Shown here in pieces: positions 751-49,373 of a stretch of DNA of 64,000 bases. Numbering within the stretch: position 1 is the first letter of the stretch; the number at the start of each line of letters is the position of its first letter. Source of the DNA: Eledone cirrhosa. Lineage: Eukaryota. The notes under the pieces are model-generated. The model did not search any database. It was not told the origin of the DNA and saw nothing but the letters and a program-made list of their open reading frames with translations. Location of the stretch: assembly GCA_964016885.1 (NCBI GenBank), contig OZ024742.1, positions 333,498,001 through 333,562,000 on the forward strand, read 5' to 3'. Position numbers and translations under genes: made by a program.

Positions 751-1259
751 ACTCAGCAGTGCCATATTTCTACGGTCACAAGCACTGCCAGAGACCCAGG
801 ACATATATTGAATCTCTGAGATTAACACCATTGCTAGAGAATCTTTACAAAAGTGAACAAATTATTATTATTATTATTATTGCTGTTGTTGTTCTTCTCA
901 CTATTATTATTATTATTATTTCGCTTTTGCATTATCGTTTCCACTTCAGACATATAAACAAACTGACCAATATGTCTGGTGACCCCAGATATCCAGTACC
1001 TGTCACATTATTATTATTATTATTATTATTATTATTATTATTATTGAATGCTATGGTTGACGGAGGCTCGGCTCTGTAAGGTATTGTAAATTTTGACCAC
1101 TATAACAATTGTAAATTGTTTAAAACTTTAACCAAATTGTAGACAAAAACACCCTCTTCCTCGTGAGAGGGGTCTTTCTACCCGTTATTTGGCCCTTCAG
1201 GGTTAAATAACCGCTTATTGGGGTTTTGTGCCCAATATTTATTTTAAACAAAAAAATAC

Positions 1260-3414
1260 ATGGCTACGAAAAAGAATTTCCATAGGTCACTCCCATTCAT
1301 TCCGTCTTTTTCTTCCTCAATCGTCACTACAGGAGAGAGAGGATTGTCTCTCTCCCTCCCTTCTCTAAATGTGTCTCTCTCCCTCCCTTCTCTAAATGTG
1401 TCTCTCTCGCTCCCTTCTCTTTCGCGAAGCCAGAAAAGAAAAATCACGTGCAAAGCGTGCAAGATTTCTCCACGACGACGACGACGACAACGACGAAAAA
1501 TGTGTGCGGGAAATACGAAAACCCATTTCATTCGTCTGACGTCATGCATAATAGCAGTAGCAGCCGTAATAACAGCAGCAGCAGCAACAGTGACAAGGAA
1601 AACAACAGTAGCAGCCGCAAAAGCATCAGCATCAGCATAAACAACAACAGCATTAGCAGCAACGGCAACAACAGCAGCAGCAGCAGCAGCAACAACAACC
1701 ACAGCAACAGCGGCAGTAGTCGTAGTACCTGCAGCAACAACAAAAGTAACAGCAGTTCTGACGACAACAATAACAACAACAACAGCAGCAAAGAAAAACC
1801 AATCTCATTTGCAGGTATCGCAAAGAACCTGGAAACCATCCTCATAACAAATGAGGAATTACAGGAAGCGAAGAAGATGGTGACGAAAACCGGACACCGA
1901 GCAATCTGCAAGGCAGCCGAAAAGTGTTTCGAAACCCAACAGCACTGTACGGTCACGTACCGTACAGTAAGCACAAAATCCCGTAGAGTTGAAAGAGCCA
2001 CAGAGGCTCAAATACAACAGGCCTTAGGGTCTGTCTGGCAGCGGAAAACGCATATCACGCGAGGCAAGATATATGCCACCCTAGACGTGCTTTTTGCCAC
2101 ACCCCAGGAGGCAAAGGCTCAATCCTTAGTGACCCTAAGGAGCGAGGAAATGGTGTTGGTGCCCTCCTACTGCGGGCAAAAAATTGTGAGGGACAAACTA
2201 ACCCACGTCCCACCCGGGCTGGCCCCTTCTTGGCTGGCCGCGTCTGTCCTCGTCGGAATCGAGGACAAAACAACTGTAAGTACAGAAAAAAGTAAGAGAA
2301 GATTGGGTCGGCACCTCCATTGAGATGTTAATCCAAACCAACCAGGAGTGCATCGAAGCTATCCAGGATGTGATAGACTTCGATAACGGCACTCAACTGC
2401 CCATAAGTGTTGAGAGCAAACGCCCGAAATGCTTTCACTGTGGATCGAAGACTCACCTCAGGGCCTTCTGCAACGAGATGACCCTGAGAAAGGAGAAAAC
2501 ACCCTCCTTCCGAAACCGGCTCAACGGCTACCAGCAACAGGACAAGCGGCAACCAGCAATGATAGGTCCGTGGCACCCATACCCACGCCAAGGAAATCAA
2601 GAACAGCAGCAGCTGTGGAAGTATTAACTACAACAACAGTAATACCAAATGCAGCTGCAACAGAGACTCCACTGTAAACATCACCACCAACAACAAGTGA
2701 AAGAGTGGAGCTGGTACCCCTGCGACCTCACAGAATCAGACATGGAGTGTGAGGGGGGAGAGGGATGGCAAAAAGTCGTAAGAAGGCACAAACGCAGAAG
2801 CAGCGCATCGTCGCCTTCGAAAAGGGGGGAAAGAAATGAAAAAAAAGGGTTAAGGCTACTGCAAAGAGACTCACAGGAGCAACACCAACAACATCATCAC
2901 CACCCACACTAGCACCACCATCACAACCGGCGACAACCCCACCGTCAACAACAACAACACCTTCAACACCACCACCACAAGCACCAACATCGCAAACACA
3001 ACAACAAAACACACACACTCAGCAACAACGACAAGAAAATAGCAGAACCACACCCCACCCCCAGAAAAACAAATGCACGGCAATAAATACACACAACAAG
3101 AAACTAATGACTTAATAATTGAACACACAGACATTTCACAGCACGACTAAATAATATCAGCACCAATCAAAACGCCAACTAACATAAGACTGCTAACAAT
3201 AGCACAGAAACAATACACAAACATTAAAACGAAATTCCCTAACGCAGTTGGTGATTTCAGAGACCTAGGAGGGACTCTCAACCGAAGAGTATATTCGGAC
3301 ATACTCATAGAAGAGCCGACGACCAGCCGAAGGGACGATTCAACGGTCCCTTCACCAGACGATCAAGTGAAAAGGGATGGAAAAACCATCCTTCCTCTAC
3401 GAAAAGCACGGTAA
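1260..3414 (+). pseudogene. Tx1 ORF1 (gag-like, CCHC zinc knuckle), frameshifted
   Basis: Starts MATKKNF; N/S-rich tract; knuckle CFHCGSKTHLRAFC; Pro/Thr-rich tail; several frameshifts and stops. Confidence 0.85.
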
Positions 3415-3449
3415 GTGGTCTTTCCCATCTTTTCCACTCTATTTTAAAC

Positions 3450-46300: not shown

Positions 46301-49264
46301 ATAGGCTTCATAGACAAGGACCCGGCTACTGGAAGCTAAACGGGTCCTTACCAGCGCGCAAGGCCTACAGAGACCGGATTAGCGAACTAGTTAAGCGGGC
46401 GTAGACGGGGGCCATCGTCTACAACAAGTGGTGGTTTGCTCTGAAAAGAGCGATTAGAATAGAATCGATTAGGTTTAGTAAGGCTTTAGCAATAGAGAAA
46501 AATAGAGCAGAGGGAGAACTAGTTAGAAAATTAGAGGAGGCGCTTAGCAAAGGCATTGCGACCGACGTTCTTGCGGCGAAATAGGCCCTTGACCAATTCT
46601 TCAATGCAAAGCACGAACGCTGCGTTGTCAGAACAAGGGTGCGTGCTCTCAGACACGAGGGGACGAAAGCCGTTGAATGGGCCCGAGTGGCGGAGGCGCG
46701 TCGTGGCAACAAAGCCACGATCCAGTCTTTGGTGGACCACGACGGGCGCATGCTACTCGATCCCGGGCAAATGTGTGAAGCTTTTCAGCGACACTTCGCT
46801 CAGCTGTTCGGGGGCAGCGGTGGGCCGGGTCGAGGGATGTACTTTAGTGTCTACCTCGACGGACTGCCGCGGCTCTCGGCCACTGAGGCGAAGTGTTGCG
46901 AAAAGCCGATAACAGCCGCTGAAGTAAGGGAGGCAATGACTGGCTGCACAAGGGGTAAATCGCCTGGTTTGGATAGTCTGCCCTATGAACTTTACGTACA
47001 GATGCCAGACTTGTTCGGAGGCTTCTTGGAGGACGTCTACTGCAACTGGCAACAGAACGGGAGAATTCCCAGTTCTGTGAGCCGAGGAGCGGTGGCACTG
47101 CTTAGAAAGGATCCGAACAAGGGGGATAACATAGATAATTTGCGGCCCATAACCTTGCTAAACACAGAGTTCAAGATTTTGGCCAAGGTGCTAGCAAAGA
47201 GGTTGGCGCTTGTCGTTGGTGGTCTGGTGGGATGGCGCAGACATGCGCCATTCCCGACAGATCGACCCACGACAACCTCCACCTCATGCGATACATCGTA
47301 GAGAGGGTAGCTAGGGAACCTGGCACGGGTGGGTCCTTGATCAATTTAGATCAGTCGAAAGCTTTCGATAGGTTCGAACATCGTTACCTAGCGGCAGTCC
47401 TGAGGGCGGCTGGCTTTGGGCCCGTCTTCAGAGGCTGGATCGCTGACATGCACAGCGACATCTGCTCTGTGGTGAGAGTGAACGGTCAACTGTCGGAACC
47501 GTTCAACATCATGCGCTCGGTCCGCCAAGGATGTCCCCTCTCGTCCCTCTTTTACGTATTGAATCTCGAGCCATTACTGCACAAACTGGAGACGTTGAGG
47601 GGCATCACGCGCAAACTAGGATGCGAAAGATCCGTGTCAGCATATGCCGACGATGTCACCGTAGTGGTGTCGAACGCCAAACACATCGAGGCGATCGGCA
47701 CTACACTAAGAGAATACGAAGCGGTGACAGGAGCAATGATCAACCAGGAAAAGTCAGTGGGCCTGCAGCTCGGCACCTGGAGAGGCAGGTCCATGCCGTC
47801 CAACAGCGTCGTCGGACGCTGGACGGACGGACCGGTTAAATTGCTAGGGGTCTGGTTCGGTCCGGACCTCCAGACCGACAAAAACTGGGACGAGGTGGCG
47901 AGCAGGGTGGCTTCTCCCACCCAGAAATGGGCGGAGAGGAAGCTATCCCTGAAAGGTCGAGCGGAGGTGGCTAACGCGTTCATCGTGTCTGTCATCTGCT
48001 ACCACCTGACCGTCGTACCTTGTCCTAAGCCTCGCCTGACTGCGCTGGAGCGTTTGCTCTTTCGCTTTTTGTGGAAGGGACGCGCTCCGATGGTCAGGCG
48101 GTCCATCTGTTGTCAACACCCGCTACGTGGAGGGCTGGGCATGCCGTGGCTGATGATGCGCAGGCACGCGCTCAGGCTACGACATCTCCACCTCTTCCTC
48201 GACGGTGATCAGGTGTGGTCGCCGTTTGCTAGACACGTATTTCCCCAGCTCGTTTCCTTGACAGATCTGCAGTCCTGGGTCAAGCGAAGACCGAGAGGGA
48301 GCGCCTGGAGACTGGAATGTCTTCAGGCGCTCACAGCCCTCGACCAATCGGGCAATGTAATCGGTGGAAACTCCACCTCAGCGTTCTATAGAGGATTAGT
48401 GGAAGGGAAGAGCGACGACGTACTTGGGGAAACTCTAGGCGTCGACGAAAATCAACTAACCAATCTCTTCGGAAGAACTTTCGGGCCAGGGCCTATGGAC
48501 AACTTCCAGAAATCTCTGGCCTGCCAGTGCTACCGAGGAGCCTTGCCAGTTCGGGATAAACTCTACAGGCATGGAGGTACCGTCAGCCGGGCATGTCCGA
48601 GATGCGCGCAGGTCGATGAAACCGTCCTGCACGCACTCGTCCAGTGTCCGAAATTTCTGACTTGTGGGTTTATGTCGAACACCTGCTGTCGCGTTTAGGA
48701 CGGATCCGGCTATCATCTGAGTCCATCGTGAGGATTGCCCCGCCCTCCTCCTTTAGCCGGGAAGGGCAGTCAGTTTTTATCTGTCTGGTGGCCATGGCGA
48801 AAGAGATAGTATGGTGGACACGTTTGAAAGTGCTGAAGACGAGCACTTACCTCTTCGGTGATGCTCTGATTGACTTCTTCAAATTTCATTTGAAAAGGAA
48901 AATCAGAGTAGAGAGGGAAGTGCTCTCTTCCCAGCATTTTGTTGAAAGATGGGTGAGAGAAGCAAGAATGGCCCGAGTGTATGGGCCTACTCTGAGTATA
49001 TATCTGTAAATTAAAGGTGGAAAACTGAGAGAGGGCACTTGCCTTGGTGGTCAGGGTCACTGTGGCCTTTTACTGGGCTTTCTCCACAAATGTCCCTCAG
49101 AAGTCTCCCCCCCCCCCTATTGGGGAATTTTTCATTGTTATTTTTTGTTACATCCTCTGTTTTTGTTTTTTACACGCAGAAATGCCCATTTGTACCGTAC
49201 TGTATTGTCCTGCACTGTCCTTAATGTCTACTTTATTTAAACCCTTGTGGTTAATAAAGAAATC
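43308..49264 (+). mobile_element. Tx1-like retrotransposon copy A3, full length; ORF1 43524-45556 and ORF2 45592-49009 disrupted
   Basis: Same termini as A2; several nonsense and frameshift lesions. Confidence 0.95.
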
Positions 49265-49373
49265 ATTATTATTATTATTATTATTATTATTATTAGTAGT
49301 AGTAGTAGTAGTAGTAGTAGTAGTAGTAGTAGTAGTAGTAGTAGTAGTAGTAGTAGTAGTAGTAGTAGTAGTA
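49265..49373. repeat. Compound (ATT)n(AGT)n microsatellite, right edge of the array
   Basis: Directly visible in the sequence. Confidence 0.95.

Follow-up and report, generated by a model that had tools for sequence, protein, structure and literature searches.

How can retrotransposons with two unrelated types of endonuclease share one trinucleotide repeat, and what sets the direction in which each of them lies? The question is raised by a stretch of 64,000 nt from Eledone cirrhosa (contig OZ024742.1, positions 333,498,001 to 333,562,000; hereafter the window), about 48 kb of which is an array of retrotransposons and (ATT)n tracts. The source genome is approximately 3.0 Gb. A first-pass annotation had counted 13 insertion units in the array and had placed them in two groups of strictly opposite orientation. 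Both the count and the polarity were borne out. Five long interspersed nuclear elements (LINEs) of the apurinic/apyrimidinic endonuclease (APE) type, here called Tx1-like, all lay on the plus strand, and eight of the restriction-like endonuclease (RLE) type, here called Dong-like, all lay on the minus strand.

A scan of the window found 14 ATT tracts on the plus strand, between positions 861 and 49294, and no (AAT)4 run on that strand across the array. The tracts divided positions 1046-49264 into 12 element segments, which represent the 13 LINE units. The annotation had all units bounded by (ATT)n. This held for 24 of the 26 unit ends and failed at about position 8312, where a Dong-like and a Tx1-like unit were fused without a tract. 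Its statement that no element is nested in the body of another stood within the window, where no unit was flanked by both halves of a host element.

We consider it likely (probability about 0.8) that an APE-type Tx1-like lineage and two RLE-type Dong-like families insert into (ATT/AAT)n in fixed opposite orientations, by target-primed reverse transcription from nicks that their own nucleases are predicted to make on different strands. The flanks, the polarity, the domains and the scale of this occupation were observed directly.

Identity, flanks and polarity of the two groups

The plus-strand units of the window carried an APE domain (PF03372) and a reverse transcriptase (RT). An intact 1139-aa product of the second open reading frame (ORF2) scored above the cut-off for PF03372, PF00078 and PF13966, and had the layout of the L1 group: an N-terminal APE, the RT and a C-terminal zinc finger. 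In the Protein Data Bank, the ORF2 of the window units matched human L1 ORF2p best (177 bits, versus 77 for R2). The endonuclease domain also matched that of L1 best, and the alignment covered the whole length of the APE. AlphaFold modelled ORF2 poorly (mean predicted local distance difference test score, 48). A separate ORF1 of 554 or 698 aa was present upstream of ORF2 in other copies; a CCHC-like knuckle was read in it by eye, and a Pfam search of ORF1 gave no family above cut-off. Judged from its sequence, this lineage is a member of the L1-group, APE-type retrotransposons that lack long terminal repeats (non-LTR). In a quick tree without bootstrap, its RT was placed only with 11 relatives lacking clade names. 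The label Tx1-like refers to architecture and target specificity, named Tx1 references being absent from the homologues compared.

In the minus-strand units a single ORF encoded an RT and contained CCHC and RPD..D motifs, the latter that of a nuclease; no Pfam match to APE was found in them. The RT matched R2 best, with 113 bits versus 57 for L1. The C-terminal 200 aa of one unit gave R2 protein chains as the best matches, which were weak (E 0.0015-0.005). On these features the units are RLE-type non-LTR elements of the R2 group. They formed two families, DongA and DongB, whose ORFs were 43% identical over 518 aa and which fell into one 26-row clade of proteins lacking names (quick tree, no bootstrap). 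Like R4/Dong elements, these units had inserted into (TAA)n as read along their sense strand. The Dong/R4-like label rests on architecture and target, with no named R4/Dong references among the 120 homologues listed.

The flanks were then counted over the whole genome with 23-mer patterns. (A DNA search with the 3' 300 bp of the Tx1-like element skips common words and gave 4 matches only.) The patterns occurred 9314 times for the Tx1-like tail, 4118 times for the DongA tail and 475 times for the Dong head. One Tx1-like 5' end, head A, was found at 2444 sites, in similar numbers on the two chromosome strands. (ATT)3 in exact phase preceded 2359 of these 2444 sites (96.5%) and 1495 of 1602 sites of a second 5' end, head B (93.3%). 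The annotation had regarded mostly non-ATT 5' flanks elsewhere as fatal to its reading; this was not what the genome contained. The target preference of Tx1-clade families has been defined by more than 20% of the flanks being of one type (PMC4494074), a level far exceeded here. The chance level was obtained from 56 evenly spaced 10-kb stretches (560 kb), taken as an unbiased sample, in which exact (ATT)3 adjoined 0.02% of positions.

For the orientation comparison, fetched loci were combined with these genome-wide single-end controls. A wrong-way flank preceded head A at one of the 2444 sites, which was a fold-back duplication. ATTATT preceded none of the 475 Dong heads in the genome. AATAATA stood directly before 60 of the first 100 Dong heads after removal of duplicate rows, and at 30 fetched loci AATAAT was present within 30 nt of the Dong head in 28 and ATTATT in none.

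The same picture emerged from a census of loci on chromosome C1 (147 after merging; 694,638 bp), which were picked by the element ends that its first 122 Mb contain. Tx1-like 3' ends adjoined ATT in 104 of 114 cases, both repeats in 3 and AAT alone in none. Dong 3' ends adjoined AAT in 100 of 104 cases, both repeats in 2, other sequence in 2 and ATT alone in none. All 75 full-length Tx1-like 5' ends followed ATT. Truncated 5' ends adjoined AAT in 52 of 71 Dong copies, and ATT in none; the joints mostly overlapped the tract by 0-2 nt. Truncated Tx1-like 5' ends adjoined ATT in 21 of 48 cases, against a background of 1.7%.

Neighbours within 200 bp of each other were also compared. Of 98 pairs of a Tx1-like and a Dong element, 96 faced opposite ways, and 76 of 78 pairs of the same class pointed the same way. 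Orientation was clearly non-random, as the annotation had expected. The four exceptions comprised one true same-way join, one pair across a compound microsatellite and two pairs from one fold-back. Fold-back inverted duplications were seen at element 5' ends at locus L205 (C4:16751345-16754374) and on C1 near 42938152; they explain the wrong-way match and the two same-class exceptions.

Was the tract a target or only a tail? Across the tract from 30 Tx1-like heads lay a Dong 5' end in 13 cases, a Tx1-like tail in 9, the tail of a short interspersed nuclear element (SINE) in 4 and nothing recognised in 4. A tract between a Tx1-like head and a Dong 5' end is the tail of neither, which indicates that it served as target and was not only a tail, as the annotation had maintained. 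The tract before the Tx1-like heads varied from 4 to 27 units at all 30 loci, and the median flanking tract lengths were 10, 9.5 and 9 units. With flanks of this size on each side, target remains after an insertion.

In the 560-kb sample, Tx1-like elements covered 4.5% and Dong elements 3.7% (together about 8%). Of the 21 ATT tracts with 5 or more units, 10 adjoined one group or the other; among the 7 with 9 or more units, 6 did so. All 16 element ends at tracts had the expected polarity. Several other sampled tracts were the tails of SINEs or other short repeats, and such tails may seed new targets. A SINE-like repeat with an ATT tail (window 59757-59939; L016, L017, L030) made up about 1.5% of the sampled DNA, and Tx1-like copies sat in its tail at 4 of 30 loci.

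Both groups have recently been active, as their sequences show: identity to the nearest neighbour was at least 99% for 23 of 82 Tx1-like and 29 of 60 Dong 3' ends. An unbroken 1139-aa ORF2 was found in 5 of 33 full-length Tx1-like copies, none of which had a whole ORF1 too, and the window held no intact copy. Older relatives, about 73-85% identical, likewise ended in ATT, which shows the target preference to be old. Among metagenome relatives, mostly 23-33% identical, (ATT)4 or (AAT)4 was found at 0 of 80 loci, a result uninformative on the target of this lineage.

Priming strands and competing explanations

In target-primed reverse transcription, synthesis starts where the DNA strand complementary to the RNA has been nicked. 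From this, Tx1-like elements would prime on the AAT strand and Dong elements on the ATT strand. The Tx1-like APE would nick the AAT strand. Full-length junctions kept one phase on both sides, which points to the T/A step as the probable site. The APE of TRAS1 nicks its own target between T and A (PMC7265360).

In the Tx1-like elements an AATAAA signal ended 6 nt short of the tract; the tails seen most often entered ATT directly, with no poly(A) at the junctions. RNA cleavage occurs 10-30 nt downstream of AATAAA. The absence of poly(A) and the position of the signal suggested a few AUU units as the probable end of the Tx1-like RNA; these would pair with the nicked strand. The Dong RLE, on the other hand, would nick the ATT strand, and Dong RNA would end in AAT-like units. 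Of 44 DongA tails, 36 began with recurring AAC variant units and 8 did not. This recurrence suggested that repeat-like letters are copied from the RNA, and the variants fit RNA-borne repeat units with sliding initiation.

An insertion would split the tract and leave about 10 units on each side, beside which later copies of either group could land to give mixed arrays. The target would be self-renewing, and each insertion may bring it a net growth. Some tracts would be lost later or during 5' joining, leaving neighbours fused. Among the Tx1/Dong joints of the census, 83 kept a tract and 13 were scored as lacking one. Ten of the 13 were true fusions, of which 7 were head to head and 3 tail to tail; the other 3 had only a short or decayed tract. 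Several of the fusions showed an overlap of 1-6 nt, as if a deletion had taken the tract and both ends.

Several observations weigh against this reading. The census loci were a non-random choice. Seven of the 114 Tx1-like 3' ends had one ATT or none, or lay within other repeats. The weakest point was the truncated Tx1-like 5' ends, of which 26 of 48 adjoined neither ATT nor AAT and one adjoined AAT; this class was a mixture of old copies, deletions and alignment breaks. The phase in which truncated Dong 5' ends met the tract was not constant (the three phases had 22, 17 and 11 of 50 ends), so that the junctions leave the cut site of the RLE unfixed. Finally, at one locus a Dong tail was joined to a truncated Tx1-like copy in the same orientation.

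The alternative that survives best, though we think it improbable, is that one nuclease defines the niche. The Tx1-like elements would then prime on the second-strand nicks of Dong in the AAT strand, or on breaks at fragile ATT, with RNA-DNA pairing steering them. Opposite polarity would follow by necessity, and the strict complementarity of the two groups is what would be expected. The predicted AUU end of the Tx1-like RNA could pair with the target in this case too, and a Dong end was faced by 10 of 30 Tx1-like tails as well as by the 13 heads. Another 13 of these 30 tails, on the other hand, had no recognised neighbour. The Tx1-like APE, with its full-length alignment to the L1 endonuclease, was unbroken in the 5 copies with a whole ORF2, and Tx1-like junctions kept to one phase while truncated Dong junctions did not. 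These points favour a nuclease of its own for each group.

Alternatively, the ATT runs might be the leader and tail of the Tx1-like transcript, and the element might insert into any AT-rich or simple-repeat DNA. This was suggested by the difference between truncated 5' ends, of which fewer than half had ATT, and full-length ones, all of which did. Some short copies also lay in TTC, ACT or AT runs. Yet 21 of 48 is far above background. A free inserter would rarely land beside a Dong end, as nearly half of the heads did, and at least four different 5' heads all followed ATT. We regard this alternative as very improbable.

Still less can be said for tandem duplication, or unequal crossing-over at the tracts, as the main source of the arrays in place of repeated insertion. 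Two loci, L033 and L034, shared a Dong truncation point and lay among evenly spaced heads on C1, and a few 3' ends were 100% identical. The units of the window, however, were of different families, bore different heads and were truncated at different points (355, 554 and 2368 bp), with no multi-element period repeated among them.

Two other samples, which carry the same species label, gave raw restriction-site-associated DNA (RAD) reads that contained joints of a Tx1-like tail, (ATT)n and a Dong tail (236 and 207 reads, with 10 and 6 starts). Joints of a truncated Dong, (ATT)n and a Dong were also present in the reads of both samples. Both families were found in contigs labelled as two other organisms, with the same repeat at the Dong tails. 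Mis-joining of the assembly through ATT tracts, a danger named in the annotation, is therefore excluded as a general cause and scarcely credible otherwise: single raw reads cross the joints, the tracts are only 20-100 bp long and the polarity is the same in solitary copies flanked by unique sequence. These data leave the order of units in this one 48-kb array to rest on the assembly.

Relation to known systems

Single features of the arrangement have several precedents. Dong targets (TAA)n (PMC3812793), and Bombyx mori Dong follows TAA repeats on the sense strand (PMC3774820). The target is the same for Dong of B. mori, DongAg and DongBg, and the polarity of B. mori Dong is as found here. The Dong/R4 clade has the same single ORF with RT, CCHC and a PD..D-type nuclease. 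Its class is given differently in the accessible texts: Dong is listed among APE types in PMC3812793, and the R4 clade is put among RLE types in PMC4640811. Unlike these elements, the present ones comprise two families, 43% identical, with one leader of about 570 bp, and they cohabit with an APE element. An HDV-like (hepatitis delta virus-like) ribozyme is known from B. mori Dong (PMC3774820), whereas at the Dong 5' end here no Rfam match reached the gathering score, and none was found by a home-made descriptor, which was used without a positive control.

Families of the Tx1 clade target (TC)n (Kibi), (TTC)n (Koshi) and, in crocodilians, (TTCC)n/(TTTC)n (PMC4494074). They are likewise LINEs of the L1/Tx1 group with APE and RT that live in microsatellites. 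The target (ATT)n, however, is not named for Tx1 in the accessible text of that paper, and the likeness to Kibi and Koshi is one of architecture and target type only.

Convergence of an APE and an RLE element on one site is already published for Keno (Tx1, APE) and Utopia (RLE), which evolved in parallel on U2 snRNA genes (PMC4640811). Their 3' flanks are identical, and so is their polarity, and a low-copy gene is disrupted; here the elements face opposite ways, and the target outlasts an insertion and is used again. Two families lying in opposite directions in one repeat are likewise published: TRAS and SART of insect (TTAGG)n, which have similar structures and can exchange their endonuclease domains (PMC7265360). 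That pair is telomeric, whereas the present APE and RLE pair occupies interstitial microsatellites across the chromosomes.

TRAS and SART are both APE elements of the R1 clade. These precedents, with that of Dong in (TAA)n, lower the surprise of the present arrangement. A fixed orientation is, moreover, expected of any strand-specific insertion, so that two elements sharing a target can lie only the same way or, as here, opposite ways.

In papers on the repeats of octopuses and molluscs, Dong-R4 and L1-Tx1 elements are listed, and for octopus genomes they are given as expanded or as active in recent times (PMC8967140, PMC13282606, PMC10294476, PMC9115989); neither a target site nor an array is stated for them in the accessible texts. 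A literature search, with Repbase outside its reach, found no description of an (ATT)n-specific Tx1 family or of mixed Dong/Tx1 arrays in the texts accessible to it. As far as this search shows, three things are new: an L1/Tx1-group lineage with (ATT)n as its target, the sharing of that target with Dong and the scale at which this occurs.

A strong proposal would be that the two groups make target for each other and hold about half of the ATT tracts of at least 5 units and about 8% of the DNA, with the polarity forced by one group priming on the strand that the other cuts second. We think it improbable. A milder version, of a new target and mixed, self-renewing arrays that are unpublished, seems rather probable.

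With this lineage, (ATT)n joins the targets of microsatellite-specific APE LINEs. A review describes the mechanism of microsatellite targeting as not well understood (PMC3812793). The two groups would provide a natural pair of unrelated nucleases acting on opposite strands of one 3-bp duplex, with thousands of junctions, and allow nuclease specificity to be separated from RNA-target pairing. A target that outlives insertion can come to hold about 8% of a 3-Gb genome, by the estimate from the 560 kb. Microsatellites can in this way become arrays of tens of kb, which later suffer deletions. ATT-based genetic markers in the host would often lie at element ends.

Structure of the array and of its elements

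Upstream of the first ATT tract lay a decayed old relic of a Tx1-like ORF2 C-terminus (534..722, +), with 44.8% identity over 67 aa in tblastn and about 71% nucleotide identity to Tx1-like copies. Its polarity was that of the younger copies. The left edge (861..1045, +) consisted of degenerate ATT (861-920), 86 bp of single-copy DNA (921-1006) and (ATT)13 (1007-1045). The 86-bp piece was considered as a third Dong 3' end and rejected as single-copy, a 26-mer from it having one genome match at up to 1 mismatch.

The first Tx1-like unit (1046..6593, +) had head A with a full 5' end, a deletion of about 470 bp near its 3' end and broken ORFs. An ATT tract (6594..6668, +) separated it, tail to tail, from a chimeric Dong unit (6669..8312, -) made of a DongB 3' end (6669-7465) and an internal DongA piece (7467-8312). 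This unit was 5'-truncated, and its 5' end, which lacked ATT, was fused head to head with a 347-bp Tx1-like 3' fragment (8312..8658, +), with about 3 filler bases and no tract. After (ATT)13 (8659..8697, +) came a full-length Tx1-like unit with head A (8698..14723, +); its ORF2, with APE and RT, spanned 11043-14150 and lost its frame before the C-terminus.

Beyond a tail-to-tail ATT tract (14724..14777, +) the Dong units followed one another. A full-length DongA (14778..19654, -) had a 340-bp duplication in its leader. After an ATT tract (19655..19733, +) came a full-length DongB (19734..24668, -), then (TTC)n (24669-24709) passing into an ATT tract (24669..24805 in all, +). Three 5'-truncated DongA units were next: one of 355 bp (24806..25160, -), with an ATT tract at 25161-25223 on its 5' side; one of 554 bp (25224..25777, -), with a tract at 25778-25840; and one of 2368 bp (25841..28208, -), with a tract at 28209-28262 and an open 764-aa frame containing RT, CCHC and the RLE motif. 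A unit of the DongA2 subfamily (28263..32870, -), 92-94% identical to DongA, lacked about the first 57 nt of the leader and was followed by an ATT tract (32871-32897). The last Dong unit was a full-length DongA (32898..37426, -).

An ATT tract between two heads (37427..37487, +), the tail of neither neighbour, led to a Tx1-like unit with head B, which has a different 5' 2.1 kb (37488..43265, +). Past (ATT)14 (43266..43307, +) lay a full-length Tx1-like unit with head A and broken ORFs (43308..49264, +). The right edge (49265..49373, +) was (ATT)10 followed by an (AGT)n run (49295-49373). No match longer than 150 bp was found in the 10 kb on each side of the window.

At least four different 5' heads were found on related ORF2 sequences (window 37488-39600 versus 8698-10900; L107, L117, L131), all beginning with G directly after ATT. 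In the Dong families, by contrast, a 5' leader of about 570 bp was common to DongA and DongB at 86-90% (window 36860-37426 and 24090-24668, -), and among 30 loci (L155-L184) it ran into either family. Such identity of the leader, set against proteins 43% identical, suggests swapping of leaders or promoters between the families. Descent of the leader from a captured Tx1-like 5' end was rejected, as blastn gave only low-complexity matches of 19-21 nt. A piece of the SINE-like repeat was embedded in the DongB leader.

DongB truncation points also recurred. One, 995 bp from the 3' end, was shared by L098, L111 and L118, which had different neighbours, and another, at about 805 bp, by others (L033, L034, window 7465). 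A non-autonomous derivative or a truncation hot spot would be possible sources.

ATT tracts often adjoined (TTC)n or (AGT)n, as at both such runs of the window and at L009, L014, L021, L096 and L099. Two truncated Tx1-like copies had (TTC)n, the target of Koshi, on their 5' side. Relaxed specificity or drift of the tract may account for such neighbours.

Outside the array, long inverted repeats lay at window positions 52450-54600 and 53593-54199 and included a 620-bp self-palindrome of 88.7%. A broken RT-bearing element at 60787-64000 (+), unrelated to the array, matched RVT_1 with 29.5 bits, just under the cut-off; its motifs suggest that it may be Penelope-like.

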